A DNA stretch of 64,000 nucleotides from Mayamaea pseudoterrestris (Eukaryota): the NCBI GenBank assembly GCA_027923505.1, contig BROI01000027.1, forward strand, positions 62,001 through 126,000. The letters are read 5' to 3'. This document shows positions 9,401 through 40,876 of this stretch, in pieces; position 1 is the first letter of the stretch; the number at the start of each line of letters is the position of its first letter. A program made the position numbers and the translations under genes. The notes under the pieces are model-generated. The model was not told the DNA's origin. It searched no databases and worked only from the letters and a program-made list of their open reading frames with translations.

Positions 9401-10320
9401 GGAACACATGAGTTGACCAACATTGAATGAGTCATAGTTGCTCACGTATATCTTGTTGAAAGGTGGCATTTGCTAAAATGACAGTCAGAGCCATAGTTTG
9501 ATTGGTTTGGATTCATAGACTGCGCTGTTGTTCTATTTGGCCTATCTACTCCCACAGCTTTCCCAAAACTTGAGTTTGCCAGGTTTGTTTGTCTTTGTAG
9601 GCCTCATTGATAGCTTGGCCAATGGTGGCAATGTTGGTAATTGATGGGGATGCCCAGCGGACCTGGTGGTGTGATGTGGCGACATACGGGATACTTAGCT
9701 ATGTGGAAGCTAGCATGTCTACTCACAAAACATAAAGGATTTGCATGACCGCCAAGGTTGAAGTGGATGATTGACTTTATAAAAAGCTTTTTGAAAGGTG
9801 GGAATGCTTCACATGATGGGGATGGCCAAAGTTTTGCGGGTGCTGCCGCTGCTGCTGTGTGACATACAGTCGCACAAAATACAGTATATCTACTCCTGTT
9901 TTGCCAGGAACACATGAGTTGACCAACATTGAATGAGTAATAGTTGCTCACGTATATCTTGTTGAAAGGTGGCATTTGCTATAATGACAGTCAGAGCCAC
10001 AGTTTGATTGGTTTGGATTCATAGACTGCGCTGTTGTTCTATTTGGCCCATCTACTCCCACAGCTTTTTCAAAACTTGAGCTTGCCAGATTTGTTTGGTT
10101 TTGTTGGCCTCATTATGGTGGGGGGGCATGTTGGTGATTGGGGGATGCCCAGCGGACCTGGGTGTGTGCGTTGGCCTCATTGATAGCTTGGCCAATGGTG
10201 GCAATGTTGGTAATTGATGGGGATGCCCAGCGGACCTGGTGGTGTGATGTGGCGACATACGGGATACTTAGCTATGTGGAAGCTAGCATGTCTACTCACA
10301 AAACTTAAGGGATTTGCATA
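6455..10320 (+). repeat. Satellite family B, ~506-bp unit (trimer of diverged 162/173/171-bp subunits), ~7.5 copies
   Basis: aaggtggca anchor near 6471, 6977, 7430, 7935, 8441, 8954, 9460 and 9966. The internal motifs ggtgg(c/g)aatg and tctactc recur at 162/173/171-bp spacing. Confidence 0.95.
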
Positions 10321-10321
10321 A

Positions 10322-11388
10322 CTTATGGAATCATACTACTACAATGCCCCGTGCCCTGATCACCCAACAACCCAATGAGTCATGCAAAACATGTCCAGGG
10401 TGTGCCATTGACATGAGGATGGTCTGGCATGGTGCAAAACGGACTGCCTTGAGGCCTACAGCATGGAATGATCTGCAAGATGGGTGTGGCCAACACCCCA
10501 AATTATGGAACCATACCACTACAATGCCCCATGCCCTGGCCAACCAACAACCCAAGGAGTCAGGCAAAACATGTCCAGGGTGTGCCATTGACATGAGGAT
10601 GGTCTGAAATGGTGCAAAAGAGACTGCCTGGAGGCCTACACCCTCTGCAAATTGGGTGTGGCCAACACCCCAAATTATGGAATCGTACCACTACAATGCC
10701 CCATGCCCTGATAACCCAACAACCCAATGAGTCATGCAAAACATGTCCAGGGTGTGCCATTGACATGAGGATGTTCTGACATGGTGCAAAACAGTCTGCC
10801 TAGAGGCCTACAGCATGGAATGGTCTGCAAGATGGGTGTGGCCAACACCCCAAATTATGGAATCATACCACTACAATGCCCCATGCCCTGGAAACCCAAC
10901 AACCCAATGAGTCATGCAAAACATGTCCAGGGTGTGCCATTGACATGAGGATGGTCTGACATGGTGCAAAACGGACTGCCTGGAGGCCTACAGCATGAAA
11001 TGGTCTGCAAGATGGGTGTGGCCAACACCCCAAATAATGGAATCATACCACTACAATGCCCCATGCCCTGGCCACCCAACAACCCAATGAGTCAGGCAAA
11101 ACATGTTCAGGGTGTGCCATTGACATGAGGATGGTCTGACATGGTGCCAAACGGACTGCCTGGAGGCCTACACCATCTGCAAAATGGGTGTGGCCAACAC
11201 CCAAATTATGGAATCATACCACTACAATGCCCTGTGCCCTGATCACCCAACAACCCAATGAGTCATGCAAAACATGTCAAGGGGGTGATTTGACATGAGG
11301 ATGGTCTGACATGGTGCAAAACGGACTGCCTGGAGGCCTACAGCATGGAATGGTCTGCAAGATGGGTGTGGCCAACACCCTAAATTAT
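10322..11388 (+). repeat. Satellite family C, ~180-bp monomer (172-bp deletion variants), ~6 copies
   Basis: ttatggaatcataccactacaatgcccc recurs every 171-180 bp. Confidence 0.95.
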
Positions 11389-14300
11389 GAGACTGGTGAC
11401 AAGTTGTCACCAAATACATTGCCATCCCCTGAGACACCAGCCAAGCCTACCATCTTGTAGCGCAGCCTGAATAAGGATGTTGGCACCATTCTGGTGTATT
11501 TTGGGCACCTACAGCGCTTGCTGTAGGGGTGTATGATTGTCATGGTGTTTGTGGGCTGAGACTGGTGACAAGTTGTCACCAAATACATTGCCATCCCTTG
11601 AGACACCAGCCAAGCCTACCATCTTGTAGCGCAGCCTGAATGATGATGTTGGCACTATTCTGGTGTATTTTGGGCACCTACAGGGCTTGCTGTAGGGGCA
11701 TTTGAATGTCATGGCATCTGCGGGCTGAGACTGGTGACAAGTTGTCACCAAATACATTGCCATGCCCTGAGACACCAGCCAAGCCTACCATCTTGTAGCG
11801 CAGCCTCAATAAGGATGGTGGCACCATTCTGGTGAATTTTGGGCACCTACTGGGCTTGCTGTAGGAGCGTTTGAATGTCACAGCATCTGCAGGCTGAGAT
11901 TGGTGACAAGTTGTCACCAAATACATTGCCATCCCCTGAGACGCCAGCCAAGCCTACCATCTTGTAGCGCAGCCTGAATTATGATGTTGGCACCATTCTG
12001 GTGTATTTTGGGCACCTACAGGGCTTGCTGTAGGGGCGTTTGAATGTCACAGCATCTGCGGGCTGAGACTGGTGACAAGTTGTCACCAAATACATTGCCA
12101 TCCCCTGAGACACCAGCCAAGCCTACCATCTTGTAGCGCAGCCTGAATAATGATGTTGGCACCATTCTGGTGTATTGTGGGCACCTACAGGGCTTGCTGT
12201 AGGGGCATTTGAATGTCACGGCATCGGCGGGCTGAGACTGGTGACAAGTTGTCACCAAATACATTGCCATGCCCTGAGACACCCGTCAATCCAACCATCT
12301 TGTAGCGCAGCCTGAATTATGATGTTGGCACCATTCTGGTGTATTTTGGGCACCTACAGGGCTTGCTGTAGGGGTGTATGATTGTCATGGTGTTTGTGGG
12401 CTGAGACTGGTGACAAGTTGTCACCAAATACATTGCCATCCCTTGAGACACCAGCCAAGCCTACCATCTTGTAGCGCAGCCTGAATAAGGATGTTGGCAC
12501 TATTTTGGTGTATTTTGGGCACCTACAGGGCTTGCTGTAGGGGCATTTGAATGTCATGGCATCTGCGGGCTGAGACTGGTGACAAGTTGTCACCAAATAC
12601 ATTGCCATCCTGTGAGACACCAGCCAAGCCTACCATCTTGTAGCGCAGCCTGAATAATGATGTTGGCACCATTCTGGTGTATTTTGGGCACCTACAGGGC
12701 TTGCTGTAGGGGCGTTTGAATGTCACGGCATCTGCGGGCTGAGACTGGTGACAAGTTGTCACCAAATACATTGCCATCCCCTGAGACAACAGTCAAGCCT
12801 TCCATTTTGTAGCGCAGCCTGAATAATGATGTTGGCACCATTCTGGTGTATTTTGGGCACCTACAGGGCTTGCTGTAGGGGCGTTTGAATGTCACGGCAT
12901 TCGCGGGCTGAGACTGGTGACAAGTTGTCACCAAATACATTGCCATCCCCTGAGACACCAGCCAAGCCTACCATTTTGTAGCGCAGGCTAAATATTGATG
13001 TTGTCACCATTCTGGTGTATTTTGGGCACCTACAGGGCTTGCTGTAGGGGCGTTTGAATGTCACAGCATTTGCGGGCTGAGACTGGTGACAAGTTGTCAC
13101 CAAATGCATTGCCATCCTGTGAGACACCAGCCAAGCCTACCATCTTGTAGCGCAGCCTGAATAATGATGTTGACACCATTCTGGTGTAATTTGGGCACCT
13201 ACAGGGCTTGCTGTAGGGGGGTTGAATGTCACGGCATTTGCGGGCTGAGACTGGTGACAAGTTGTCACCAAATACATTGCCATCCCCTGAGACACCAGCC
13301 AAGCCTACCATCTTGTAGCGCAGCCTGAATAATGATGTTGGCACCATTCTGGTGTATTTTGGGCACCTACAGGGCTTGCTGGAGGGGCGTTTGAATGTCA
13401 CGGCATCTGCGGGCTGAGACTGGTGACAAGTTGTCACCAAATACATTGCCATCCCCTGAGACACCAGCCAAGCCTACCATCTTGTAGCGCAGCCTGAATA
13501 ATGATGTTGGCACCATTCTGGTGTATTTTGGGCACCTACAGGGCTTGCTGTAGGGGCGTTTGAATGTCACGGCATTCGCGGGCTGAGACTGGTGACAAGT
13601 TGTCACCAAATACATTGCCATCCCCTGAGACACCAGCCAAGCCTACCATCTTGTAGCGCAGCCTGAATAATGATGTTGGCACCATTCTGGTGTATTTTGG
13701 GCACCTACAGGGCTTGCTGTAGGGGCGTTTGAATGTCACAGCATTTGCGGGCTGAGACTGGTGACAAGTTGTCACCAAATACATTGCCATCCCCTGAGAC
13801 ACCAGCCAAGCCTACCATCTTGTAGCGCAGCCTGAATAATGATGTTGGCACCATTCTGGTGTATTTTGGGCACCTACAGGGCTTGCTGTAGGGGCGTTTG
13901 AATGTCACAGCATTTGCGGGCTGAGACTGGTGACAAGTTGTCACCAAATGCATTGCCATCCTGTGAGACACCAGCCAAGCCTACCATCTTGTAGCGCAGC
14001 CTGAATAATGATGTTGGCACCATTCTGGTGTATTTTGGGCACCTACAGGGCTTGCTGTAGGGGCGTTTGAATGTCACGGCATTTGCGGGCTGAGACTGGT
14101 GACAAGTTGTCACCAAATACATTGCCATCCCCTGAGACACCAGCCAAGCCTACCATCTTGTAGCGCAGCCTGAATAATGAGGTTGGCACCATTCTGGTGT
14201 ATTTTGGGCACCTACAGGGCTTGCTGTAGGGGCGTTTGAATGTCACGGCATCTGCGGGCTGAGACTGGTGACAAGTTGTCACCAAATACATTGCCATCCC

Positions 14301-17300
14301 CTGAGACACCAGCCAAGCCTACCATTTTGTAGCGCAGCCTGAATAATGATGTTGGCACCATTCTGGTGTATTTTGGGCACCTACAGGGCTTGCTGTAGGG
14401 GCGTTTGAATGTCACAGCATTTGCGGGCTGAGACTGGTGACAAGTTGTCACCAAATACATTGCCATCCCCTGAGACACCAGCCAAGCCTACCATCTTGTA
14501 GCGCAGCCTGAATAATGATGTTGGCACCATTCTGGTGTATTTTGGGCACCTACAGGGCTTGCTGTAGGGGCGTTTGAATGTCACGGCATTTGCGGGCTGA
14601 GACTGGTGACAAGTTGTCACCAAATACATTGCCATCCCCTGAGACACCAGCCAAGCCTACCATCTTGTAGCGCAGCCTGAATAATGATGTTGGCACCATT
14701 CTGGTGTATTTTGGGCACCTACAGGGCTTGCTGTAGGGGCGTTTGAATGTCACAGCATTTGCGGGCTGAGACTGGTGACAAGTTGTCACCAAATACATTG
14801 CCATCCCCTGAGACACCAGCCAAGCCTACCATTTTGTAGCGCAGCCTGAATAATGATGTTGGCACCATTCTGGTGTATTTTGGGCACCTACAGGGCTTGC
14901 TGTAGGGGCGTTTGAATGTCACGGCATCTGCGGGCTGAGACTGGTGACAAGTTGTCACCAAATACATTGCCATCCCCTGAGACACCAGCCAAGCCTACCA
15001 TCTTGTAGCGCAGCCTGAATAATGATGTTGGCACCATTCTGGTGTATTTTGGGCACCTACAGGGCTTGCTGTAGGGCGTTTGAATGTTACAGCATAGCGG
15101 GCTGAGACTGGTGACAAGTTGTCACCAAATACATTGCCATCCCCTGAGACACCAGCCAAGCCTACCATCTTGTAGCGCAGCCTGAAATGGGTGGGCACCA
15201 TTCTGGTGTATTTTGGGCACCTACAGGTCTTGCTGTAGGGGCGTTTGAATGTCACGGCATCTGCGGGCTGAGACTGGTGACAAGTTGTCACCAAATACAT
15301 TGCCATCCCCTGAGACACCAGTCAAGCCTACCATTTGTAGCGCAGCCTCAATAATGATGGTGGCACCATTCTGATGTAATTTGGGCACCTACAGGGCTTG
15401 CTGTAGGGGCGTTTGAATGTCACGGCATCTGGGGGCTGAGACTGGTGACAAGTTGTCACCAAATACATTGCCATCCCCTGAGACACCAGCCAAGCCTGCC
15501 ATCTTGTAGCGCAGCCTGATTAATGATGTTGGAACCATTCTGGTGTATTTTGGGCACCTACAGGGCTTGCTGTAGGGGCGTTTGAATGTCACAGCATTTG
15601 CGGGCTGAGACTGGTGACAAGTTGTCACCAAATACATTGCCATCCCCTGAGACACCAGCCAAGCCTACCATCTTGTAGCGCAGCCTGAATAATGATGTTG
15701 GCACCATTCTGGTGTATTTTGGGCACCTACAGGGCTTGCTGTAGGGGCGTTTGAATGTCACGGCATCCGCGGGCTGAGACTGGTGACAAGTTGTCACCAA
15801 ATACATTGCCATCCCCTGAGACACCAGCCAAGCCTACCATCTTGTAGCGCAGCCTGAATAATGATGTTGGCACCATTCTGGTGTATTTTGGGCACCTACA
15901 GGGCTTGCTGTAGGGGCGTTTGAATGTCACGGCATCTGCGGGCTGAGACTGGTGACAAGTTGTCACCAAATACATTGCCATCCCCTGAGACACCAGCCAA
16001 GCCTACCATCTTGTAGCGCAGCCTGAATAATGATGTTGGCACCATTCTGGTGTATTTTGGGCACCTACAGGGCTTGCTGGAGGGGCGTTTGAATGTCACA
16101 GCATTTGCGGGCTGAGACTGGTGACAAGTTGTCACCAAATACATTGCCATCCCCTGAGACACCAGCCAAGCCTACCATCTTGTAGCGCAGCCTGAATAAT
16201 GATGTTGGCACCATTCTGGTGTATTTTGGGCACCTACAGGGCTTGCTGTAGGGGCGTTTGAATGTCACGGCATTTGCGGGCTGAGACTGGTGACAAGTTG
16301 TCACCAAATACATTGCCATCCCCTGAGACACCAGCCAAGCCTACCATCTTGTAGCGCAGCCTGAATAATGATGTTGGCACCATTCTGGTGTATTTTGGGC
16401 ACCTACAGGGCTTGCTGTAGGGGCGTTTGAATGTCACAGCATCTGCGGGCTGAGACTGGTGACAAGTTGTCACCAAATACATTGCCAACCCTGAGACACC
16501 AGCCAAGCCTACCATTTTGTAGCGCAGCCTGAATAATGATGTTGGCACCATTCTGGTGTATTTTGGGCACCTACAGGGCTTGCTGTAGGGGCGTTTGAAT
16601 GTCACGGCATTCGCGGGCTGAGACTGGTGACAAGTTGTCACCAAATACATTGCCATCCCCTGAGACACCAGCCAAGCCTACCATTTTGGAGCGCAGGCTG
16701 GATATTGATGTTGTCACCAATCTGGTGTATTTTGGGCACCTACAGGGCTTGCTGTAGGGGCGTTTGAATGTCACGGCATCTGCGGGCTGAGACTGGTGAC
16801 AAGTTGTCACCAAATACATTGCCATCCCCTGAGACACCAGCCAAGCCTACCATCTTGTAGCGCAGCCTGAATAATGATGTTGGCACCATTCTGGTGTATT
16901 TTGGGCACCTACAGGGCTTGCTGTAGGGGCGTTTGAATGTCACAGCATCTGCGGGCTGAGACTGGTGACAAGTTGTCACCAAATACATTGCCATCCCCTG
17001 AGACACCAGCCAAGCCTACCATCTTGTAGCGCAGCCTGAAGAATGATGTTGGCACCATTCTGGTGTATTTTGGGCACCTACAGGGCTTGCTGTAGGGGCG
17101 TTTGAATGTCACAGCATCTGCGGGCTGAGACTGGTGACAAGTTGTCACCAAATACATTGCCATCCCCTGAGACACCAGCCAAGCCTACCATCTTGTAGCG
17201 CAGCCTGAATAATGATGTTGGCACCATTCTGGTGTATTTTGGGCACCTACAGGGCTTGCTGGAGGGGCGTTTGAATGTCACAGCATTTGCGGGCTGAGAC

Positions 17301-20300
17301 TGGTGACAAGTTGTCACCAAATACATTGCCATCCCCTGAGACACCAGCCAAGCCTACCATTTTGTAGAGCAGCCTGAATAATGAGGTTGGCACAATTCTG
17401 GTGTATTTTGGGCACCTATAGGGCTTGCTGGAGGGGCGTTTGAATGTCACAGCATTTGCGGGCTGAGACTGGTGACAAGTTGTCACCAAATACATTGCCA
17501 TCCCCTGAGACACCAGCCAAGCCTACCATCTTGTAGCGCAGCCTGAATAATGATGTTGGCACCATTCTGGTGTATTTTGGGCACCTACAGGGCTTGCTGT
17601 AGGGGCGTTTGAATGTCACGGCATTTGCGGGCTGAGACTGGTGACAAGTTGTCACCAAATACATTGCCATCCCCTGAGACACCAGCCAAGCCTACCATCT
17701 TGTAGCGCAGCCTGAATAATGATGTTGGCACCATTCTGGTGTATTTTGGGCACCTACAGGGCTTGCTGTAGGGGCGTTTGAATGTCACAGCATCCGCGGG
17801 CTGAGACTGGTGACAAGTTGTCACCAAATACATTGCCATCCCCTGAGACACCAGCCAAGCCTACCATCTTGTAGCGCAGCCTGAATAATGATGTTGGCAC
17901 CATTCTGGTGTATTTTGGGCACCTACAGGGCTTGCTGTAGGGGCGTTTGAATGTCACGGCATCTGCGGGCTGAGACTGGTGACAAGTTGTCACCAAATAC
18001 ATTGCCATCCCCTGAGACACCAGCCAAGCCTACCATTTTGTAGCGCAGCCTGAATAATGATGTTGGCACCATTCTGGTGTATTTTGGGCACCTACAGGGC
18101 TTGCTGTAGGGGCGTTTGAATGTCACGGCATTGCGCTGGGCTGAGACTGGTGACAAGTTGTCACCAAATACATTGCCATCCCCTGAGACACCAGCCAAGC
18201 CTACCATCTTGTAGCGCAGCCTGAATAATGATGTTGGCACCATTCTGGTGTATTTTGGGCACCTACAGGGCTTGCTGTAGGGGCGTTTGAATGTCACGGC
18301 ATCTGCGGGCTGAGACTGGTGACAAGTTGTCACCAAATACATTGCCATCCCCTGAGACACCAGCCAAGCCTACCATCTTGTAGCGCAGCCTGAATAATGA
18401 TGTTGGCACCATTCTGGTGTATTTTGGGCACCTACAGGGCTTGCTGTAGGGGCGTTTGAATGTCACGGCATCTGCGGGCTGAGACTGGTGACAAGTTGTC
18501 ACCAAATACATTGCCATCCCCTGAGACACCAGCCAAGCCTACCATCTTGTAGCGCAGCCTGAATAATGATGTTGGCACCATTCTGGTGTATTTTGGGCAC
18601 CTACAGGGCTTGCTGTAGGGGCGTTTGAATGTCACTGCGGGCTGAGACTGGTGACAAGTTGTCACCAAATACATTGCCATCCCCTGAGACACCAGCCAAG
18701 CCTACCATCTTGTAGCGCAGCCTGAATAATGATGTTGGCACCATTCTGGTGTATTTTGGGCACCTACAGGGCTTGCTGGAGGGGCGTTTGAATGTCACAG
18801 CATTTGCGGGCTGAGACTGGTGACAAGTTGTCACCAAATACATTGCCATCCCCTGAGACACCAGCCAAGCCTACCATCTTGTAGCGCAGCCTGAATAATG
18901 ATGTTGGCACCATTCTGGTGTATTTTGGGCACCTACAGGGCTTGCTGTAGGGGCGTTTGAATGTCACGGCATCTGCGGGCTGAGACTGGTGACAAGTTGT
19001 CACCAAATACATTGCCATCCCCTGAGACACCAGCCAAGCCTACCATCTTGTAGCGCAGCCTGAATAATGATGTTGGCACCATTCTGGTGTATTTTGGGCA
19101 CCTACAGGGCTTGCTGGAGGGGCGTTTGAATGTCACGGCATCTGCGGGCTGAGACTGGTGACAAGTTGTCACCAAATACATTGCCATCCCCTGAGACACC
19201 AGCCAAGCCTACCATCTTGTAGCGCAGCCTGAATAATGATGTTGGCACCATTCTGGTGTATTTTGGGCACCTACAGGGCTTGCTGTAGGGGCGTTTGAAT
19301 GTCACGGCATCCGCGGGCTGAGACTGGTGACAAGTTGTCACCAAATACATTGCCATCCCCTGAGACACCAGCCAAGCCTACCATCTTGTAGCGCAGCCTG
19401 AATAATGATGTTGGCACCATTCTGGTGTATTTTGGGCACCTACAGGGCTTGCTGTAGGGGCGTTTGAATGTCACGGCATCCGCGGGCTGAGACTGGTGAC
19501 AAGTTGTCACCAAATACATTGCCATCCCCTGAGACACCAGCCAAGCCTACCATTTTGTAGCGCAGCCTGAATAATGATGTTGGCACCATTCTGGTGTATT
19601 TTGGGCACCTACAGGGCTTGCTGGAGGGGTGTTTGAATGTCACGGCATCCGCGGGCTGAGACTGGTGACAAGTTGTCACCAAATACATTGCCATCCCCTG
19701 AGACACCAGCCAAGCCTACCATCTTGTAGCGCAGCCTGAATAATGATGTTGGCACCATTCTGGTGTATTTTGGGCACCTACAGGGCTTGCTGTAGGGCGT
19801 TTGAATGTCACGGCATCTGCGGGCTGAGACTGGTGACAAGTTGTCACCAAATACATTGCCATCCCCTGAGACACCAGCCAAGCCTACCATCTTGTAGCGC
19901 AGCCTGAATAATGATGTTGGCACCATTCTGGTGTATTTTGGGCACCTACAGGGCTTGCTGTAGGGGCGTTTGAATGTCACGGCATCTGCGGGCTGAGACT
20001 GGTGACAAGTTGTCACCAAATACATTGCCATCCCCTGAGACACCAGCCAAGCCTAACATTTCGTAACGCAGCCTGATTTATGATGTTGGCGCCATTCTGG
20101 TGTATTTTGGGCACCTACAGGGCTTGCTGTGGGGGGGCGTTTGAATGTCACGGCATCTGCAGGCTGAGACTGGTGACAAGTTGTCACCAAATACATTGCC
20201 ATCCCCTGAGACACCAGCCAAGCCTACCATCTTGTAGCGCAGCCTGAATAATGATGTTGGCACCATTCTGGTGTATTTTGGGCACCTACAGGGCTTGCTG

Positions 20301-25712: not shown

Positions 25713-25713
25713 A

Positions 25714-25860
25714 CACCATGGAATGGTCTGCAGGCTGGGTGTGGTGACAAGTTATGGAGTCATACCACCAATGCCCCAACGGCCATCCAACAATCCAATG
25801 AGTCACGGCAATGCCGTTGCCATTGTGCAGAACAAGTGCAGGTCTGCCTGGGGCTGACAT
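25714..25860 (+). repeat. Degenerate single copy of family C on the right side of array D
   Basis: catggaatggtctgca..gggtgtgg..ttatggagtcataccac..aatgcccc..ccaacaatccaatgagtca aligns by eye with the family C monomer. Confidence 0.8.
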
Positions 25861-25884
25861 GGGTTACGGCCCCAGCTGTGGGTG

Positions 25885-26611
25885 TTGGATCATTACATAA
25901 ATCCCATCTGAAAGTTTGATGTGGTTGACCACTTGAAGGAACCTACTTGCTACAATCACGCACATCCACTGACTGATGTGCTTCCTTTTTGGACCATCTC
26001 AGCCTTTGACTTTGTCAAACAACTTATGCTGATTGCAATGGCATGCTCAGAATAATGCTAGCAAGGTTGAATTGTCACACTAAACCCAACTGAAAGTTTG
26101 CTGTGTTTGCCACATGGTAAAGCCTACTTGTCTCAGTCTCGGTTGCACTGCAGCCACTGACTGAACTGCTGCCGTTTTCAAAGATCCAAGCTTGGACCTC
26201 GTCAAGTACCGTCTGCAGATTGCAGTTGCAAGTTCGGATTCATGGTGACAAGTTTGGATCATTTCATAAATCCCATCTGAAAGTTTGATGTGGTTGACCA
26301 CTTGAAGGAACCTACTTGCTACAATCACGCACATCCACTGACTGATGTGCTTCCATTTTGGACCATCTCAGCCTTTGACTTTGTCAAACAACTTTTTCTG
26401 ATTGCAATGGCATGCTCAGAATAATGCTAGCAAGGTTGGATTATCACACTAAACTCAACTGAAAGTTTGATGTGTTTGCCACATGGTAAAGCCTACTTGT
26501 CTCAGTCTCGGTTGCACCACAGCCACTGACTGAACTGCTGCCGTTTTCAAAGATCCAAGCCTTGGACCTTGTCAAGTATCAACTGCAGATTGCAGTTGCA
26601 GGTTTGGATTC
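25885..26611 (+). repeat. Satellite family E, 369-bp unit (dimer of diverged ~185-bp halves), 2 copies
   Basis: tcccatctgaaagtttg occurs at 25902 and 26271. The halves share aatcccatctgaaagtttgatgtggttgaccac and aaacccaactgaaagtttgctgtgtttgccac. Confidence 0.9.
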
Positions 26612-29600
26612 ACCTGCTAAGCCATCCAACCCCTTTCCACTAATGTTTGTTGATATTTTGGTCCAATGCTGGGGTGACTATCACCCCAATATCCACCAGC
26701 CTGGCTGCCATGGTGAGACTCAGCAGATCCAATAACTTGTTGGATCTGCCAGCGGTGCACCTCAGCTGGTACACAGACAGCCAGGATGGCCTGCAGACCC
26801 AAGAATATCAAAACCAAAATACATATGATACAATTGGACCAATAGTCATATCAATTGTGGTGTGGAACGCAGCATTGTGCCATGAGGCTGCGCACATTCA
26901 ACAAGTTGTTGAATGTGCTAGCAGTGAACCATGCTTTAACTACAGGATCATCAATCTTGCCTGCTAAGCCATCCAACTTGTTTCCTATGATGTTGGTTGA
27001 TATTTTGGTCCAATGCTGGGGTAACTATCACCCCAATATCCACCAGCCTGGCTGCCATGGTGAGACTCAGCAGATCCAATAAGTTGTTGGATCTGCCAGT
27101 GGTGCACCTCAGCTGGTACACAGACAGCCAGAATGGCCTGCAGACCCAAGAATATCATAACCAAAATACATATGATACAATTGGACCAATAGGCATGTCA
27201 ATTGTGGTGTGGAACGCAGCATTGTGCCATGAGACTGCGCACATTCAACAAGTTGTTGAATGTGCTAGCAGTGCACCCATTTTGGCTTTAGGATCATCAG
27301 CCTTGCCTGCTAAGCCATCCAACCCCTTTCCATTATTGTTTGTTGACATTTTGAGCCAATGCTGGGGTGACTATCACCCCAATATCCACCAGCCTGGCTG
27401 CCATGGTGAGACTCAGCAGATCCAATAAGTTGTTGGATCTGCCAGTGGTGCACCTCAGCTGGTACACAGACAGCCAGAATGGCCTGCAGACCAAAGAATA
27501 TCAAAACCAAAATACATATGATACAATTGGACCAATAGTCATGTCAATTGTGGTGTGGAACGCAGCATTGTGCCATGAGACTGCGCACATTCAACAAGTT
27601 GTTGAATGTGCTAGCAGTGAACCATGCTTTAACTACAGGATCATCAATCTTGCCTGCTAAGCCATCCAACCTGTTTCCTATGATGTTGGTTGATATTTTG
27701 ATCCAATGCTGGGGTGACTATCACCCCAATATCCACCAGCCTGGCTGCCATGGTGAGACTCAGCAGATCCAATAAGTTGTTGGATCTGCCAGTGGTGCAC
27801 CTCAGCTGGTACACAGACAGCCAGAATGGCCTGCAGACCCAAGCATATCATAACCAAAATACATATGATACAATTGGACCAATAGGCATGTCAATTGTGG
27901 TGTGGAACGCAGCATTGTGCCATGAGACTGCGCACATTCAACAAGTTGTTGAATGTGCTAGCAGTGCACCCTTTTTGGCTTTAGGATCATCAGCCTTGCC
28001 CGCTAAGCCATCCAACCCCTTTCCATTAATGTTTGTTGACATTTTGAGCCAATGCTGGGGTGACTATCACCCCAATATCCACCAGCCTGGCTGCCATGGT
28101 GAGACTCGGCAGATCCAATAAGTTGTTGGATCTGCCAGTGGTGCACCTCAGCTGGTACACAGACAGCCAGGATGGCCTGCAGACCAAAGAATATCAAAAC
28201 CAAAATACATATGATACAATTGGACCAATAGTCATGTCAATTGTGGTGTGGAACGCAGCATTGTGCCATGAGACTGCGCACATTCAACAAGTTGTTGAAT
28301 GTGCTAGCAGTGCACCATGCTTTAACTACAGGATCATCAGTCTTGCCTGCTAAGCCATCTAACCCCTTTCCACTAATGTTGGTTAATATTTTGATCCAAT
28401 GCTGGGGTGACTAACACCCCAATATCCACCAGCCTGTCTGCCATGGTGGGACTGAGCACCTCCAACAACTTGTTGGATATGCCAGTGGTGCACCTCAGGT
28501 GGCAACCAGACTGCCAGAATGGCCTGCAGACCCAAGAATATCATAACCAAAATACATATGATACAATTGGACCAATAGTCATGTCAATTTTGGTGTGGAA
28601 CGCAGCATTGTGCCATGAGACTGCGCACATTCAACAAGTTGTTGAATGTGCTAGCAGTGCACCCTTTTTGGCTATAGGATCATCAGCCTTGCCTGCTAAG
28701 CCATCCAACCCCTTTCCACTAATGTTTGTTGACATTTTGATCCAATGCTGGGGTGACTATCACCCCAATATCCACCAGCCTGGCTGCCATGGTGAGACTC
28801 GGCAGATCCAATAAGTTGTTGGATCTGCCAGTGGTGCACCTCAGCTGGTACACAGACAGCCAGGATGGCCTGCAGACCAAAGAATATCAAAACCAAAATA
28901 CATATGATACAATTGGACCAATAGTCATGTCAATTTTGGTGTGGAACGCAGCATTGTGCCATGAGACTGCGCACATTCAACAAGTCGTTGAATGTGCTAG
29001 CAGTGAGCCATGCTTTAACTACGGGATCATCAGCCTTACCTGCTAAGCCATTCAACCTGTTTCCTATGATGTTTGTTGACATTTTGAGCCAATGCTGGGG
29101 TGACTATCACCCCAATATCCACCAGCCTGGCTGCCATGGTGAGACTTGGCAGATCAAATAAGTTGTTGGATCTGCCAGCGGTGCACCTCAGCTGGTACAC
29201 AGACTGCCAGGATGGCAACCAAAGAATATCATAACCAAAATACATATGATACAATTGGACCAATAGTCATGTCAATTTTGGTGTGGAACGCAGCATTGTG
29301 CCATGAGACTGCGCACATTCAACAACTTGTTGAATGTGCTAGCAGTGCATCCTTTTTGGCTATAGGATCATCAGCCTTGCCTGCTAAGCCTTCCAACCCC
29401 TTTCCACTAATGTTTGTTGACATTTTGAGCCAATGCTGGGGTGACTATCACCCCAATATCCACCAGCCTGGCTGCCATGGTGAGACTCGGCAGATCCAAT
29501 AAGTTGTTGGATCTGCCAGTGGTGCACCTCAGCTGGTACACAGACAGCCAGAATGGCCTGCAGACCAAAGAATATCATAACCAAAATACATATGATACAA

Positions 29601-32600
29601 TTGGACCAATAGTCATGTCAATTTTGGTGTGGAACGCAGCATTGTGCCATGAGACTGCGCACATTCAACAAGTTGTTGAATGTGCTAGCAGTGCACCCTT
29701 TTTGGCTATAGGATCATCAGCCTTGCCTGCTAAGCCATCCAACCCCTTTCCACTAATGTTTGTTGACATTTTGAGCCAATGCTGGGGTGACTATCACCCC
29801 AATATCCACCAGCCTGGCTGCCATGGTGAGACTCAGCAGATCCAATAAGTTGTTGGATCTGCCAGTGGTGCACCTCAGCTGGTACACAGACAGCCAGAAT
29901 GGCCTGCAGACCAAAGAATATTAAAACCAAAATACATATGATACAATTGGACCAATAGTCATGTCAATTTTGGTGTGGAACGCAGCATTGTGCCATGAGA
30001 CTGCGCACATTCAACAAGTTGTTGAATGTGCTAGCAGTGCACCCTTTTTGGCTTTAGGATCATCAGCCTTGCCTGCTAAGCCATCCAACCCCTTTCCACT
30101 AACCTGCTAAGCCATCCAACCCCTTTCCACTAATGTTTGTTGATATTTTGGTCCAATGCTGGGGTGACTATCACCCCAATATCCACCAGCCTGGCTGCCA
30201 TGGTGAGACTCAGCAGATCCAATAACTTGTTGGATCTGCCAGCGGTGCACCTCAGCTGGTACACAGACAGCCAGGATGGCCTGCAGACCCAAGAATATCA
30301 AAACCAAAATACATATGATACAATTGGACCAATAGTCATATCAATTGTGGTGTGGAACGCAGCATTGTGCCATGAGGCTGCGCACATTCAACAAGTTGTT
30401 GAATGTGCTAGCAGTGAACCATGCTTTAACTACAGGATCATCAATCTTGCCTGCTAAGCCATCCAACTTGTTTCCTATGATGTTGGTTGATATTTTGGTC
30501 CAATGCTGGGGTAACTATCACCCCAATATCCACCAGCCTGGCTGCCATGGTGAGACTCAGCAGATCCAATAAGTTGTTGGATCTGCCAGTGGTGCACCTC
30601 AGCTGGTACACAGACAGCCAGAATGGCCTGCAGACCCAAGAATATCATAACCAAAATACATATGATACAATTGGACCAATAGGCATGTCAATTGTGGTGT
30701 GGAACGCAGCATTGTGCCATGAGACTGCGCACATTCAACAAGTTGTTGAATGTGCTAGCAGTGCACCCATTTTGGCTTTAGGATCATCAGCCTTGCCTGC
30801 TAAGCCATCCAACCCCTTTCCATTATTGTTTGTTGACATTTTGAGCCAATGCTGGGGTGACTATCACCCCAATATCCACCAGCCTGGCTGCCATGGTGAG
30901 ACTCAGCAGATCCAATAAGTTGTTGGATCTGCCAGTGGTGCACCTCAGCTGGTACACAGACAGCCAGAATGGCCTGCAGACCAAAGAATATCAAAACCAA
31001 AATACATATGATACAATTGGACCAATAGTCATGTCAATTGTGGTGTGGAACGCAGCATTGTGCCATGAGACTGCGCACATTCAACAAGTTGTTGAATGTG
31101 CTAGCAGTGAACCATGCTTTAACTACAGGATCATCAATCTTGCCTGCTAAGCCATCCAACCTGTTTCCTATGATGTTGGTTGATATTTTGATCCAATGCT
31201 GGGGTGACTATCACCCCAATATCCACCAGCCTGGCTGCCATGGTGAGACTCAGCAGATCCAATAAGTTGTTGGATCTGCCAGTGGTGCACCTCAGCTGGT
31301 ACACAGACAGCCAGAATGGCCTGCAGACCCAAGCATATCATAACCAAAATACATATGATACAATTGGACCAATAGGCATGTCAATTGTGGTGTGGAACGC
31401 AGCATTGTGCCATGAGACTGCGCACATTCAACAAGTTGTTGAATGTGCTAGCAGTGCACCCTTTTTGGCTTTAGGATCATCAGCCTTGCCCGCTAAGCCA
31501 TCCAACCCCTTTCCATTAATGTTTGTTGACATTTTGAGCCAATGCTGGGGTGACTATCACCCCAATATCCACCAGCCTGGCTGCCATGGTGAGACTCGGC
31601 AGATCCAATAAGTTGTTGGATCTGCCAGTGGTGCACCTCAGCTGGTACACAGACAGCCAGGATGGCCTGCAGACCAAAGAATATCAAAACCAAAATACAT
31701 ATGATACAATTGGACCAATAGTCATGTCAATTGTGGTGTGGAACGCAGCATTGTGCCATGAGACTGCGCACATTCAACAAGTTGTTGAATGTGCTAGCAG
31801 TGCACCATGCTTTAACTACAGGATCATCAGTCTTGCCTGCTAAGCCATCTAACCCCTTTCCACTAATGTTGGTTAATATTTTGATCCAATGCTGGGGTGA
31901 CTAACACCCCAATATCCACCAGCCTGTCTGCCATGGTGGGACTGAGCACCTCCAACAACTTGTTGGATATGCCAGTGGTGCACCTCAGGTGGCAACCAGA
32001 CTGCCAGAATGGCCTGCAGACCCAAGAATATCATAACCAAAATACATATGATACAATTGGACCAATAGTCATGTCAATTTTGGTGTGGAACGCAGCATTG
32101 TGCCATGAGACTGCGCACATTCAACAAGTTGTTGAATGTGCTAGCAGTGCACCCTTTTTGGCTATAGGATCATCAGCCTTGCCTGCTAAGCCATCCAACC
32201 CCTTTCCACTAATGTTTGTTGACATTTTGATCCAATGCTGGGGTGACTATCACCCCAATATCCACCAGCCTGGCTGCCATGGTGAGACTCGGCAGATCCA
32301 ATAAGTTGTTGGATCTGCCAGTGGTGCACCTCAGCTGGTACACAGACAGCCAGGATGGCCTGCAGACCAAAGAATATCAAAACCAAAATACATATGATAC
32401 AATTGGACCAATAGTCATGTCAATTTTGGTGTGGAACGCAGCATTGTGCCATGAGACTGCGCACATTCAACAAGTCGTTGAATGTGCTAGCAGTGAGCCA
32501 TGCTTTAACTACGGGATCATCAGCCTTACCTGCTAAGCCATTCAACCTGTTTCCTATGATGTTTGTTGACATTTTGAGCCAATGCTGGGGTGACTATCAC

Positions 32601-33591
32601 CCCAATATCCACCAGCCTGGCTGCCATGGTGAGACTTGGCAGATCAAATAAGTTGTTGGATCTGCCAGCGGTGCACCTCAGCTGGTACACAGACTGCCAG
32701 GATGGCAACCAAAGAATATCATAACCAAAATACATATGATACAATTGGACCAATAGTCATGTCAATTTTGGTGTGGAACGCAGCATTGTGCCATGAGACT
32801 GCGCACATTCAACAACTTGTTGAATGTGCTAGCAGTGCATCCTTTTTGGCTATAGGATCATCAGCCTTGCCTGCTAAGCCTTCCAACCCCTTTCCACTAA
32901 TGTTTGTTGACATTTTGAGCCAATGCTGGGGTGACTATCACCCCAATATCCACCAGCCTGGCTGCCATGGTGAGACTCGGCAGATCCAATAAGTTGTTGG
33001 ATCTGCCAGTGGTGCACCTCAGCTGGTACACAGACAGCCAGAATGGCCTGCAGACCAAAGAATATCATAACCAAAATACATATGATACAATTGGACCAAT
33101 AGTCATGTCAATTTTGGTGTGGAACGCAGCATTGTGCCATGAGACTGCGCACATTCAACAAGTTGTTGAATGTGCTAGCAGTGCACCCTTTTTGGCTATA
33201 GGATCATCAGCCTTGCCTGCTAAGCCATCCAACCCCTTTCCACTAATGTTTGTTGACATTTTGAGCCAATGCTGGGGTGACTATCACCCCAATATCCACC
33301 AGCCTGGCTGCCATGGTGAGACTCAGCAGATCCAATAAGTTGTTGGATCTGCCAGTGGTGCACCTCAGCTGGTACACAGACAGCCAGAATGGCCTGCAGA
33401 CCAAAGAATATTAAAACCAAAATACATATGATACAATTGGACCAATAGTCATGTCAATTTTGGTGTGGAACACAGCATTGTGCCATGAGACTGCGCACAT
33501 TCAACAAGTTGTTGAATGTGCTAGCAGTGCACCCTTTTTGGCTTTAGGATCATCAGCCTTGCCTGCTAAGCCATCCAACCCCTTTCCACTA
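26612..33591 (+). repeat. Near-perfect 3490-bp tandem duplication inside array F (26612-30101 vs 30102-33591)
   Basis: All ORF-track entries and rare variants recur at +3490. I noticed one difference: cgcagc at 29981 vs cacagc at 33471. Confidence 0.9.
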
Positions 33592-36500
33592 ATGTTTGTT
33601 GACATTATGAGCCAATGCTGGGGTGACTATCACCCCAATATCCACCAGCCTGGCTGCCATGGTGAGACTCAGCAGATCCAATAAGTTGTTGGATCTGCCA
33701 GTAGTGCACCTCCGCTGGTACACAGACTGCCAGAATGGCCTGCAGACCCAAGAATAACCAAAACCAAAATACATTTGGACCAATAGTCATGTCAATTGTG
33801 GTGTGGAACGCAGCATTGTGCCATGAGACTGCGCACATTCAACAAGTTGTTGAATGTGCTAGCAGTGCACCCTTTTGGCTATAGGATCATCAGCCTTGCC
33901 TGCTAAGCCATCCAAGCCCTTTCCAGGCATGCTGGGGTGACTATCACCCCAATATCTACCAGCCTGGCTGCCATGGTGAGACTCAGCAGATCCAATAAGT
34001 TGTTGGATCTGCCAGTGCTGCACCTCAGCTGGTACACAGACAGCCAGAATGGCCTGCAGACCCAAGAATATCATAACCAAAATACATATGATACAATTGG
34101 ACCAATAGTCATGTCAATTTTGGTGTGGAACGCAGCATTGTGCCATGAGACTGCGCACATTCAACAAGTTGTTGAATGTGCTAGCAGTGCACCCTTTTTG
34201 GCTATAGGATCATCAGCCTTGCCTGCTAAGCCATCCAACCCCTTTCCACTAATGTTGGTTGATATTTTGGTCCAATGCTGGGGTGACTATCACACCAATA
34301 TCCACCAGCCTGGCTGCCATGGTGAGCCTCAGCAGATCCAATAAGTTGTTGGATCTGCCAGTGGTGCACCTCAGCTGGTACACAGACAGCCAGAATGGCC
34401 TGCAGACCCAAGAATATCAAAACCAAAATACATATGATACAATTGGACCAATAGTCATGTCAATTTTGGTGTGGAACGCAGCATTGTGCCATGAGACTCT
34501 GCACATTCAACAAGTTGTTGAATGTGCTAGCAGTGCACCCTTTTTGGCTATAGGATCATCAGCCTTGCCTGCTAAGCCATCCAACCCCTTTCCACTTAAT
34601 GTTGTTGACATGATGGTGACTATCACCCCAATATCCACCAGCCTGGCTGCCATGGTGAGACTCAGCAGATCCAATAAGTTGTTGGATCTGCCAGTGGTGC
34701 ACCTCAGCTGGTACACAGACAGCCAGAATGGCCTGCAGACCCAAGAATATCATAACCAAAATACATATGATACAATTGGACCAATAGTCATGTCAATTTT
34801 GGTGTGGAACGCAGCATTGTGCCATGAGACTGCGCACATTCAACAAGTTGTTGAATGTGCTAGCAGTGCACCCTTTTTGGCTATAGGATCATCAGCCTTG
34901 CCTGCTAAGCCATCCAACCTGTTTCCTATGATGTTGGTTGATATTTTGATCCAATGCTGGGGTGACTATCACCCCAATATCCACCAGCCTGGCTGCCATG
35001 GTGAGACTCGGCAGATCCAATAAGTTGTTGGATCTGCCAGTGGTGCACCTCAGCTGGTACACAGACAGCCAGAATGGCCTGCAGACCCAAGAATATCATA
35101 ACCAAAATACATATGATACAATTGGACCAATAGTCATGTCAATTTTGGTGTGGAACGCAGCATTGTGCCATGAGACTGCGCACATTCAACAAGTTGTTGA
35201 ATGTGCTAGCAGTGCATCCTTTTTGGCTATAGGATCATCAGCCTTGCCTGCTAAGCCATCCAACCCCTTTCCATTAATGTTTGTTGACATTATGAGCCAT
35301 TGCTGGGGTGACTATCACCCCAATATCCACCAGCCTGGCTGCCATGGTGAGACTCAGCAGATCCAATAAGTTGTTGGATCTGCCAGTAGTGCACCTCCGC
35401 TGGTACACAGACAGCCAGAATGGCCTGCAGACCCAAGAATATCATAACCAAAATACACATGATACAATTGGACCAATAGTCATGTCAATTTTGGTGTGGA
35501 ACGCAGCATTGTGCCATGAGACTGCGCACATTCAACAAGTTGTTGAATGTGCTAGCAGTGCACCCTTTTTGGCTATAGGATCATCAGCCTTGCCTGCTAA
35601 GCCTTCCAACCCCTTTCCACTAATGTTTGTTGACATTTTGAGCCAATGCTGGGGTGACTATCACCCCAATATCTACCAGCCTGGCTGCCATGGTGAGACT
35701 CGGCAGATCCAATAAGTTTTTGGATCTGCCAGTGGTGCACCTCAGCTGGTACACAGACAGCCAGGATGGCCTGCAGACCAAAGAATATCAAAACCAAAAT
35801 ACATATGAAACAATTGGACCAATAGTCATGTCAATTTTGGTGTGGAACGCAGCATTGTGCCATGAGACTGCGCACATTCAACAAGTTGTTGAATGTGCTA
35901 GCAGTGCATCCTTTTTGGCTATAGGATCATCAGCCTTGCCTGCTAAGCCTTCCAACCCCTTTCCACTAATGTTTGTTGACATTTTGAGCCAATGCTGGGG
36001 TGACTATCACCCCAATATCTACCAGCCTGGCTGCCATGGTGAGACTCAGCAGATCCAATAAGTTGTTGGATCTGCCAGTGCTGCACCTCAGCTGGTACAC
36101 AGACAGCCAGAATGGCCTGCAGACCCAAGAATATCAAAACCAAAATACATTTGATACAATTGGACCAATAGTCATGTCAATTGTGGTGTGGAACGCAGCA
36201 TTGTGCCATGAGACTGCGCACATTCAACAAGTTGTTGAACGTGCTAGCAGTGAACCATGCTTTAACTACAGGATCATCAATCTTGCCTGCTAAGCCATCC
36301 AACCTGTTTCCTATGATGTTGGTTGATATTTTGATCCAATGCTGGGGTGACTATCACCCCAATATCCACCAGCCTGGCTGCCATGGTGAGACTCGGCAGA
36401 TCCAATAAGTTGTTGGATCTGCCAGTGGTGCACCTCAGCTGGTACACAGACAGCCAGAATGGCCTGCAGACCCAAGAATATCAAAACCAAAATACATATG

Positions 36501-38580
36501 ATACAATTGGACCAATAGTCATGTCAATTTTGGTGTGGAACGCAGCATTGTGCCATGAGACTGCGCACATTCAACAAGTTGTTGAATGTGCTAGCAGTGA
36601 GCCATGCTTTAACTACAGGATCATCAGCCTTGCCTGCTAAGCCATCCAACCCCTTTCCACTAATGTTTGTTGATATTTTCATCCAATGCTGGGGGTGACT
36701 ATCACCCCAATATCCACCAGCCTGGCTGCCATGTTGAGACTCGGCAGATCCAATAACTTGTTGGATCTGCCAGCGGTGCACCTCAGCTGGTACACAGACC
36801 GCCAGAATGGCCTGCAGACCAAAGAATATCATAACCAAAATACATATGATACAATTGGACCAATAGTCATGTCAATTGTGGTGTGAAACGCAGCATTGTG
36901 CCATGAGACTGCGCACATTCAACAAGTTGTTGAATGTGCTAGCAGTGCATCCTTTTTGGCTATAGGATCATCAGCCTTGCCTGCTAAGCCATCCCACCTG
37001 TCTCCTATGATGTTGGTTGATATTTTGATCCAATGCTGGGGTGACTATCACCCCAATATCCACCAGCCTGACTGCCATGGTGAGACTCAGCAGATCCAAT
37101 AAGTTGTTGGATCTGCCAGTGGTGCACCTCAGCTGGTACACAGACAGCCAGAATGGCCTGCAGACCAAAGAATATCAAAACCAAAATACATATGATACTA
37201 TTGGACCATAAGACATGTCAATTTTGGTGTGGAACGCAGCATTGTGCCATGAGACTCTGCACTTTCAACAAGTTGTTGAATGTGCTAGCAGTGAGCCATG
37301 CTTTAACTACAGGATCATCAGCCTTGCCTGCTAAGCCATCCAACCCCTTTCCACTAATGTTTGTTGATATTTTGATCCAATGCTGGGGGTGACTATCACC
37401 CCAATATCCACCAGCCTGGCTGCCATGGTGAGACTCGGCAGATCCAATAACTTGTTGGATCTGCCAGTGGTGCACCTCAGCTGGTACACAGACAGCCAGA
37501 ATGGCCTGCAGACCAAAGAATTTAAAAACCAAAATAGATTTGATACAATTGGACCAATAGTCATGTCAATTGTGGTGTGGAACGCAGCATTGTGCCATGA
37601 GACTGCGCACATTCAACAAGTTGTTGAATGTGCTAGCAGTGCACCCTTTTTGGCTATAGGATCATCAGCCTTGCCTGCTAAGCCTTCCAATCCCTTTCCA
37701 CTAATGTTTGTTGACATTTTGAGCCAATGCTGGGGTGACTATCACCCCAATATCCACCAGCCTGGCTGCCATGGTGAAACTTGGCAGATCAAATAACTTG
37801 TTGGATCTGCCAGTGGTGCACCTCAGCTGGTACACAGACCACCAGGATGGCCTGCAGACCCAAGAATATCATAACCAAAATAGATTTGATACAATTGGAC
37901 CAATAGTCATGTCAATTGTGGTGTGGAACGCAGCATTGTGCCATGAAACTGCGCACATTCAACAAGTTGTTGAATGTGCTAGCAGTGCACCCTTTTTGGC
38001 TATAGGATCATCAGCCTTGCCTGCTAAGCCTTCCAATCCCTTTCCACTAATGTTTGTTGACATTTTGAGACAATGCTGGGGTGACTATCACCCCAATATC
38101 CACCAGCCTGGCTGCCGTGGTGAGACTCGGCAGATCCAATAAGTTGTTGGATCTGCCAGTGGTGCACCTCAGCTGGTACACAGACTGCCAGAATGGCCTG
38201 CAGACCCAAGAATATCATAACCAAATTACACATGATACAATTGGACCAATAGTCATGTCAATTTTGGTGTGGAACGCAGCATTGTGCCATGAGACTGCGC
38301 ACATTCAACAAGTTGTTGAATGTGTTAGCAGTGCACCCTTTTTGGCTATAGGATCATCAGCCTTGCCTGCTAAGCCATCCAACCTGTTTCCTATGATGTT
38401 GGTTGATATTTTGATCCAATGCTGGGGTGACTATCACCCCAATATCCACCAGCCTGGCTGCCATGGTGAGCTCGGGTCATAAGTTGTTGGATCTGCCAGT
38501 GCACCTCAGCGGTACACGAGAGATGGCCTGCACCGACAAAACCAAAATACATATGATACAATTGGACCAATAGTCATGTA
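26612..38580 (+). repeat. Satellite family F, 346/347-bp unit (dimer of 169+177-bp halves), ~34-35 copies
   Basis: The unit recurs every 346-347 bp. The halves share aagttgttg(g/a)at(c/g)tgc..gtgcacc, with dyad centres at 27083, 27252 and 27429. Confidence 0.99.
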
Positions 38581-38581
38581 A

Positions 38582-39322: not shown

Positions 39323-39324
39323 TA

Positions 39325-40030: not shown

Positions 40031-40034
40031 TGTG

Positions 40035-40875: not shown

Positions 40876-40876
40876 G

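Follow-up and report, generated by a model that had tools for sequence, protein, structure and literature searches.

In Meloidogyne holocentromeres, CenH3-bound tandem repeats carry a conserved 19-bp box (PMC8097292), and the satellites of M. chitwoodi and M. fallax contain Box 1, which marks junctions (PMC3694981). Kasinathan and Henikoff (2018) reported dyad symmetries in centromeric satellites; in the accessible part of that study these are <10 bp long and act as structure (PMC5889037). Rhynchospora has repeat-based holocentromeres built on Tyba (PMC10984392; bioRxiv 10.64898/2026.01.17.700053), and in the main text of the Tyba preprint the words "dyad" and "palindrom" are absent. The diatom centromeres described for P. 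tricornutum (bioRxiv 10.1101/096016) and F. solaris (bioRxiv 10.1101/2021.11.10.468027) are, in the accessible parts of those preprints, short, low in GC and without highly repeated elements. A search mainly of openly accessible literature found no diatom repeat-based holocentromere in print.

A compound satellite island and its place in the genome

The window, a 64,000-nt stretch of the Mayamaea pseudoterrestris genome (contig BROI01000027.1, positions 62,001 to 126,000), holds one compound satellite island, within which the order is old E-like, X, A, B, C, D, C-like, E, F, E, F', inverted D' and A'. Its main parts, in window coordinates, are:

4739..41760, no strand assigned: compound satellite island, 37 kb, with ordinary diatom genes on both sides (flanking ORFs)
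5465..11389, + strand: arrays A (178 bp), B (~500 bp) and C (180 bp)
11388..25712, + strand: array D, 169-bp monomer, 84.9 copies, CpG o/e 0.32
25884..26612, + strand: E dimer, 370 bp, with a second occurrence at 38582-39323
26613..38583, + strand: array F, 346-bp dimer, 34.7 copies, CpG o/e 0.15
39324..40035, + strand: F' diverged dimers
40035..40875, - strand: D' array, inverted, ~75% identity to D

D and F are not the island's only CpG-depleted satellites. Both are nucleosome-length, with non-coding monomers arranged head-to-tail in many arrays, and the loss of CpG presumably reflects methylation. The halves of the F dimer are distantly related to each other (z 8.2), and one 10-dimer block is duplicated within the array. 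A coding role for F was dropped because the single long ORF inside it has no Pfam match, as was a strand-specific RNA hairpin, since variation lacks strand asymmetry and an Rfam search of the satellites returned no match.

D fills ~5% of the 30-Mb genome in ~9,500 copies. It was found at at least 96 sites on 34 of the 41 contigs, with 2-6 sites on 24 of them, in a sample that is incomplete (Chao2 estimate, ~127 sites). The sampled map is uneven, with apparent gaps of up to 0.9-1.6 Mb, and the exact D dyad does not occur in the first 609 kb of contig C1. Telomere repeats were present at 0 of the 20 contig ends examined, so the contigs cannot be treated as whole chromosomes.

As far as the accessible parts of the cited reports describe those systems, D comes close to Tyba in its dimensions: a monomer of 169 bp vs. 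172 bp, an array of 14 kb in the window vs. 15-25 kb, and a mean spacing of ~240-320 kb vs. 300-400 kb. D shares with Tyba a monomer of ~170 bp and an organization in which each chromosome has many arrays, tens of kb in size, and in both systems the arrays contain LTR-like inserts and differ in content between paired loci. Differences from Tyba lie in islands that combine several families, in the unevenness of the sampled map, and in contigs that stop short of telomere-to-telomere assembly. With the Meloidogyne repeats, the arrays share monomers that contain a short box of strong conservation and dyad potential, and a mosaic of different families set in unrelated sequence. The Meloidogyne box is common to several families, however, whereas D and F have 4 bases per arm in common and the other families lack the box; junctions here, unlike those at Box 1, are not clustered at the dyad; and CenH3 binding has been shown in Meloidogyne, whereas D and F are known here from sequence alone. 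Like the satellites of Kasinathan and Henikoff (PMC5889037), those studied here have dyads above a composition-matched background, and F2, one of the two main F dyads, has a predicted stable fold. The arms here are longer, at 9-13 bp, and D, seen so far only as sequence, differs in being constrained in its bases while folding no better than shuffles. The likeness to P. tricornutum and F. solaris is that of a diatom with a CenH3-like histone; unlike the centromeres described from those species, the arrays have 47-52% GC, are highly repeated and occur several per contig.

Sequence constraint at the D dyad

Each D monomer contains one palindrome, for which a second hairpin in the same monomer served as an internal control:

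12070..12088, no strand assigned: example of the D dyad, TGGTGACAA-G-TTGTCACCA, one per monomer
11677..11696, no strand assigned: second D hairpin, CCTACAG-N6-CTGTAGG, 7-bp arms and 6-nt loop
40322-40346, in the inverted D' array: D' dyad, 12-bp arms, one mirrored pair relative to D

The example sequence is present at this position and, as the original prediction had it, the dyad is nearly invariant in the array, being exact at 83 of ~85 dyad positions; the final copy (~25575) has two substitutions. Counting just the copies in the window, invariant positions number 17 of 19 in the dyad vs. 61 of 150 elsewhere (Fisher p 5e-5). Two of the checks proposed with the prediction came out in its favor: the dyad beats 100 dinucleotide shuffles of the consensus (p ~0.02), and in the monomer profile it is conserved above other non-CpG positions. 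No other 19-mer of the monomer is as conserved (rank 1 of 169 windows), a rank repeated in three sets of 909, 1,547, and 790 monomers, the first drawn from loci chosen irrespective of dyad variants and the last from new loci. Over 2,337 pooled monomers, after leaving out those with <85% identity (196 of 2,533), divergence was 0.90% in the dyad vs. 5.36% in the rest, with 15.8 vs. 36.1 events and 0.11 vs. 3.9 high-frequency variants per position; trinucleotide-matched events in the dyad numbered 174, with 387 expected. The second hairpin is unconserved (22.6 events per position vs. 22.3 background). Among the listed differences of public-run contigs (40 of 74) there was no dyad variant at ≥3%; runs X7 and X13 contributed just 1 and 18 contigs here, which is insufficient for judging conservation in other populations.

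Loci L061-L080 and L101-L132 were picked at sites carrying dyad variants, so that pooled dyad variation is inflated, making the comparison conservative, and the pooled counts at G84, T85, and C91 are uninterpretable; centre positions were therefore taken from the unselected set. In that set A83, which would lie in the hairpin loop, is constrained like the arms. Subfamily-diagnostic variants begin 2 bases past the dyad (positions 95-97), giving a sharp edge at 94-95. Low variation runs leftward from the dyad to approximately position 66 and T85 varies at background level, and the footprint is thus imperfectly symmetric.

Changes within the dyad comprised 230 single-arm events vs. 3 mirrored doubles, two of which represent an old subfamily pair (monomers with <88% identity left out), whereas unbiased arm-to-arm copying predicts 29-146 mirrored doubles; the unbiased model of ongoing arm-to-arm correction in D is accordingly rejected. 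Across the genome, 15 copies carried doubles at two pairs, with at most 2 mirrored events. Full multi-base extension of mismatched outer arms was seen in none of 1,940 monomers. The D stem showed no strand asymmetry, no significant wobble tolerance and no significant transition excess, and the G-to-C excess at the centre was not significant (8/38 vs. 13.5%; p 0.16). In the D dyad the sequence itself is held, not merely its symmetry, and the data support a sequence-read site over self-copying as the better fit to this pattern.

Dyads in F and in the other families

The F dimer contains two long dyads and a shorter third one:

27070..27096, no strand assigned: F1 dyad, right arm conserved, left arm decaying, centre G or C
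27239..27265, no strand assigned: F2 dyad, 13-bp arms, the most conserved 27-mer of the dimer
27363..27381, no strand assigned: third F dyad, TGGGGTGACTATCACCCCA, 8-bp arms, 27 exact copies, missing from the diverged F subfamily
39499-39525, in F': F2-type dyad with a mirrored change at ±2 and core ACCA-A-TGGT

Both long example sequences are present where listed. The recurrence of roughly 170 bp noted at the outset holds, with F dyad centres alternating 169 and 177 bp apart and a D period of 169 bp, and F too beats 100 dinucleotide shuffles of its consensus (p ~0.01). F2 ranks first of 346 windows for conservation. Its outer arms are ~1.5% divergent, its centre and ±2 positions differ between subfamilies, and 25 of its 26 arm bases are identical between subfamilies that are 72% identical elsewhere (p 0.002). 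The reported switching of the F centre between G and C was also found, with C in 7 of 34 F1 and 2 of 34 F2 copies; exact F2 copies number 27 with centre G and 2 with centre C, and as both of the latter lie within the duplicated 10-dimer block they probably stem from one event. F2, whose centre varies more freely than its conserved outer arms, would be a site of its own, used by a spaced dimer or forming a hairpin stem. Mirrored changes do occur in D' and in the F subfamilies.

The third F dyad, which like the second D hairpin was absent from the original prediction, is unconserved, and F also carries non-palindromic conserved blocks of 12-16 bp. That the most conserved block is the dyad in every family is false for A, B, C, and E: the A and B dyads are no more conserved than the remaining monomer, the short palindrome of E is unconserved, and in A, C, and E conservation peaks in blocks other than the dyad.

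Selection, structure, turnover and the centromere question

The D palindrome is likely kept by selection for reading by a putative protein dimer, with a core shared with F that is likely coincidental, an explanation to which we give an even chance. The selected property would be recognition of the double-stranded palindrome by a DNA-binding protein dimer, with one site in each nucleosome-length unit. The low variation would then reflect selection acting either at the level of the cell or among monomers whose amplification benefits from being bound, and the few mirrored differences between subfamilies would date from old template-switch or two-step events. Non-singletons make up 45 of 187 variants at the D dyad vs. 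1,004 of 2,199, but singletons include assembly errors, so this skew alone does not tell selection apart from reduced mutation. The subfamilies were all compared within one genome, where conversion can link them. Selection on a stem would likewise leave few singles, rare mirrored doubles and a freer centre.

It is unlikely that structure is what is selected, with dyads extruding as hairpins or cruciforms needed by a structure-reading protein or by the amplification machinery. F2 and F1 each fold better than 200 of 200 shuffles (z -4.95 and -2.90), the F2 centre varies while the outer arms hold, D and D', F1 and F2, and F2 and F2' differ by mirrored changes, and a precedent exists in PMC5889037; the D hairpin, however, is weak (z -0.73, equalled by 45 of 200 shuffles), its stem is without significant transition excess or strand bias, mismatched states are fixed in entire F subfamilies (ATAA in F1; ACAACTGGT in 27 diverged F2 copies), and the other hairpins of D, F, A, B, and E are unconserved. 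The cruciform-forming element suggested for both arrays thus keeps a strong predicted potential in F2 but loses it in D. The dyad might owe nothing to selection if it mutated less or homogenised faster. This could come about by error-free lesion bypass templated on the opposite arm, by a conversion hotspot or by nucleosome-phased repair. Short inverted repeats are homogenised by template switching and are reported, in the accessible part of the source, to be more conserved than their surroundings (PMC8604942); F centres switch between G and C; and an assembly-error floor of ~0.4% per base would be expected to reproduce the singleton skew. We nonetheless consider this account unlikely, because unbiased arm copying cannot lower divergence and mirrored doubles fall far below its expectation, the D centre lacks a significant G-to-C excess, the outer arms of D are not perfected, and the edge at 94-95 is sharp. 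Directional lesion bypass and nucleosome phasing may still be at work.

The original prediction also held that D and F, otherwise unlike each other, share ACAA-N-TTGT as one kind of site. Their dissimilarity was confirmed, with local-alignment z ≤1.2 for D or D' against F1 or F2 and no homology detectable by alignment, but the shared site was not supported: the core is present in F2, whereas the left core of F1 reads ATAA in 32 of 34 window copies, the core is the variable part of the F dyads, and its match is near chance. A single factor reading this core in both satellites, as a Meloidogyne-like shared box, would fit its occurrence in D, main F2 (90 of ~103 copies) and diverged F1 (49 of ~65), a TGAGACT 4-11 bases upstream of all three cores, an F1-to-F2 spacing equal to the D period, and 22 8-mers common to D and F vs. 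7.8 ± 5.1 in shuffles. It is improbable given that the core is altered in main F1 and diverged F2, that the half-sites have the 4 bases ACAA alone in common (p ~0.006 per pair, ~0.05 over 9 possible dyad pairs), and that words common to the nine satellite families are at chance level, for which reason a universal box was rejected. Because D-F homology is undetectable and the core match near chance, the two are probably separately constrained palindromes, and the 4-base core is likely a coincidence. Another reading makes the dyad a junction left by a transposon or recombinase, whether as joined terminal repeats or an integrase-like site, that drives array spread. In a first sample 17 of 30 junctions were near a dyad, some junctions recur on several contigs, and LTR-like inserts in arrays start TGACAAGT or end GTGTCA, resembling the D core. 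A replication set beforehand, in which 32 of the 38 planned loci were used, failed, with 4 of 32 junctions near a dyad (p 0.98) and 0 of 7 satellite-satellite ones, leaving 21 of 62 overall (p 0.09); the dyad centre is not where arrays end, and the dyad has no flanking target-site duplication. A junction or insertion hotspot at the dyad is rejected on these counts, and the junction reading is largely refuted and highly improbable.

TALE-type homeodomains, a lead suggested by their preference for TGACA, have 5 matches in the genome; D' and F lack TGACA, and so these form a candidate list at most. A search for a CENP-B-like protein through its Tc5-type DNA-binding domain (PF03221) gave 0 matches, as did its controls, and is uninformative. 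The CENP-B box is an imperfect palindrome that depends on two CpGs. Its nine-base motif is matched at best 7/9 in D, outside the dyad and without either CpG, and 6/9 in F, so that with nine essential bases and two CpGs neither satellite carries the box. A divergent H3 gene at G000:C2:130344 has Q68, F84, and T107 substitutions, which we take to be CenH3 marks, making it a candidate CenH3 gene. D resembles the CENP-B box as a periodic conserved box in a satellite of ~170 bp (PMC5889037, PMC8097292) and differs from it in having a dyad without CpG.

Holocentric or polycentric chromosomes, in which the >100 D islands would be centromere units and the palindrome, read by a dimeric factor at every nucleosome, would seed CenH3, are a decidedly doubtful extension of this analysis. 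If true, this would add a genetically specified centromere of the Tyba kind to a group in which the centromeres described so far are low in GC and poor in repeats; short of CenH3 enrichment on the islands, the dyad would be a conserved box in a heterochromatin-like satellite, a feature of a known kind though new to this lineage. It has long been asked whether the cell reads satellite sequence or whether that sequence just drifts, and satellite dyads have mostly been predicted. The D copies of this diatom amount to a natural mutational scan of a 19-bp palindrome, one that tells sequence constraint from symmetry maintenance and defines oligos for binding tests.

The tandem-array island and its palindromes

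The genome searched was the 30.6-Mb, 41-contig assembly of Mayamaea pseudoterrestris, a eukaryote; the named relatives of one protein flanking the island are diatom proteins (Seminavis, Amphora, Nitzschia, and others). The island of tandem arrays spans ~4.7 to 41.8 kb of the window, with units of 169–185 bp or multiples, and an Rfam search of the satellite sequence returned no matches. Its two largest arrays and their dyads are as follows.

Arrays and dyads (window positions)
11388–25712: array D, 169-bp monomers
26613–38583: array F, 346-bp dimers
12070–12088: D dyad, example copy, 19 bp with 9-bp arms
27070–27096: F1 dyad
27239–27265: F2 dyad, 13-bp arms
27363–27381: third F dyad

The sequences and coordinates originally predicted for the D, F1, and F2 dyads were all correct, and the near-invariance claimed for the D dyad was borne out by exact copies at 83 of ~85 positions of the window array. 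The F2 dyad is exact in 27 plus 2 of ~34 window copies, and the described G/C switch appears as a C centre in 7 of 34 F1 and 2 of 34 F2 copies. Palindromes in D (p ~0.02) and F (p ~0.01) are better than in shuffled controls; monomers of families A and B likewise hold better palindromes than shuffles, and those of families C, E, and X do not. The CpG observed/expected ratio is 0.32 in D and 0.15 in F vs. 0.96 on the right side of the window, and D diverges by 13–16% at its CpG positions vs. 4–5% elsewhere; this depletion and divergence suggest CpG methylation.

Ten F dimers form a block that is tandemly duplicated with matching private variants (window 26613–33561), a recent higher-order repeat. 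A 976-aa ORF with DUF4395 and SLAC1 matches adjoins the island (window 43291–46221), and the right island edge directly borders an aldo-keto reductase gene. The left flank (window 545–7040) has a 94% identical counterpart on contig C34 (about 45750–52150; loci L001–L006), which then runs into an island of other content, with a short D and a third F subfamily. Because the fetched C34 stretch contains nothing that matches the unique right flank and window 43300–43900 is single-copy in the genome, synteny between C34 and the window's contig, C27, breaks at the island.

Constraint on the D dyad

The exact D dyad occurs 7,799 times genome-wide, and an estimate corrected for inexact copies puts D at ~9,500 monomers, 5% of the assembly. 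In a set of 909 monomers whose loci had been chosen without regard to dyad variants, no other of the 169 windows varied as little as the dyad, whether scored on raw divergence or on independent array-level events (its rank by singletons was 5th), in keeping with the prediction that it is conserved while neighbouring positions vary. Low variation recurred in 1,547 monomers, where a trinucleotide-matched control expected 387 events against 174 observed and conservation held with homopolymers excluded, and in 790 monomers of 32 new loci. In the pooled profile (2,337 of 2,533 monomers), divergence was 0.90% in the dyad vs. 5.36% outside, with 0.11 vs. 3.9 high-frequency variants per position. The monomer's second hairpin varies at the background rate, and gaps show no clear depletion at the dyad. 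The low-variation stretch reaches leftwards to ~position 66, and subfamily markers start at positions 95–97. For public-run contigs, 40 of 74 differences were shown, and these included no dyad variant of ≥3%. Of the double changes at dyad positions 91–92 and 76–77, many are adjacent CC-to-TT (7 copies; contigs C6, C13, C18, C26, and C27), a signature of UV damage, and the genome-wide search also found one GG-to-AA double.

Template switching at short inverted repeats is described as homogenising arms and inverting spacers (PMC8604942). Unbiased arm copying cannot lower divergence, because mutations are erased and doubled equally; its model expects ~146 mirrored doubles per 230 singles, and 29 even at weak depletion. 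The D dyad shows 3 against 230 singles, two of them an old subfamily pair, and a genome-wide search at two base pairs gave 15 double-changed copies, mostly same-arm, with at most two mirrored events. There is no significant G-to-C excess at the centre in fetched monomers; across the genome, C accounts for 37 of the 85 centre variants, and in fetched loci most C-centre copies bear the older flank. The mismatched outer arms are extended in full in 0 of 1,940 monomers (older flank in 3), the dyad has no strand bias, and wobble tolerance is not significant. With so few mirrored doubles, no extension, and neither strand bias nor significant wobble tolerance, the dyad acts as expected of a site recognised through its double-stranded sequence, and we give roughly even weight to its being a box recognised in this way by a protein. 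The D data contradict a self-correcting palindrome as the source of its low divergence. Selection on a stem would leave a similar pattern, and the low variation may also come from directional lesion bypass or from nucleosome-phased repair.

The closest known system to such a box is the conserved 19-bp box described in CenH3-bound Meloidogyne repeats (PMC8097292), together with Box 1 (PMC3694981). Unlike these, the D dyad proved on testing neither common to several families nor located at junctions: no words common to nine satellite families exceeded chance, and although 17 of 30 array junctions lay near the dyad in a first sample, a test fixed beforehand found no such clustering on new loci (4 of 32). 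By the D data, a module common to every family is illusory. The CENP-B box has no match in D or F.

F dyads and the shared core

Across 161 dimers from 12 sources, the F2 dyad is the most conserved 27-mer of the F dimer (rank 1 of 346). Its outer arms are ~1.5% divergent vs. 15.7%, and subfamilies that are 72% identical elsewhere agree at 25 of 26 arm bases. Its core is variable, diverged copies reading ACAACTGGT (n = 27, mismatched state) or ACCAATGGT (n = 13, mirrored state). In the main family F1 reads ATAA and its right arm alone is held (13/13 vs. 10/13); the third dyad is without conservation. Predicted folding is far better than in shuffles for F2 but not for D, and the dyad model described in PMC5889037 suits F2 better than D.

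D and F are indeed unlike each other, with no alignment (z at most 1.2). They share somewhat more 8-mers than shuffles do, and a 4-base arm match has p ~0.006, or ~0.05 over nine dyad pairs. Given the variable core in F, the lack of D–F homology, and this near-chance match, two separately constrained palindromes fit better than the single ACAA-N-TTGT site originally predicted, which we consider unlikely.

Dispersal of the islands

D sites number at least 96 on 34 of 41 contigs, including all of C1–C23 (rare-variant samples plus direct matches), and a Chao2 estimate gives ~127, one per 240–320 kb. The genome encodes a CenH3-like divergent histone H3 (locus L045; contig C2, 130344–130610) whose substitutions we take to be CenH3 hallmarks. 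Telomere repeats were found at 0 of 20 contig ends. The CenH3-occupied Tyba arrays are described as having 172-bp units, lengths of 15–25 kb, and spacings of 300–400 kb (PMC10984392); by comparison, D coverage looks uneven, with apparent gaps of up to 1.6 Mb among the sampled sites and the initial 609 kb of C1 devoid of exact dyads. Diatom centromeres are described as low-GC and without repeats (10.1101/096016; 10.1101/2021.11.10.468027), and in the portions of the literature covered by our searches on diatom satellites or holocentricity no account of such a satellite or of holocentric diatoms was found. A repeat-based holocentromere built on D islands is possible but improbable, and dispersed methylated heterochromatin would explain the D map equally well.

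Some D arrays contain LTR-like inserts (L018:7957–8351, L124 about 1008–1394, L107, L123, and C34 loci) starting TGACAAGT, or TGACAAGTTGT in one copy, and others bounded TGACAC...GTGTCA; both types resemble the D core, with no longer homology to D seen. At a break within the D array of L025 (about 4787–4807; contig C13 about 160790) lie two telomere-type CCCTAA units, which may reflect healing of the break or an artefact of assembly.

Identical C–D, D–C′, D–C-like, and A–D junctions recur on different contigs (window 11388 and 25712; L018, L026, L016, L118, L123, C16, C34, L017, and L022), which suggests that islands spread partly as multi-family blocks copied together. The D and F palindromes are real, constrained, and part of a dispersed diatom satellite.
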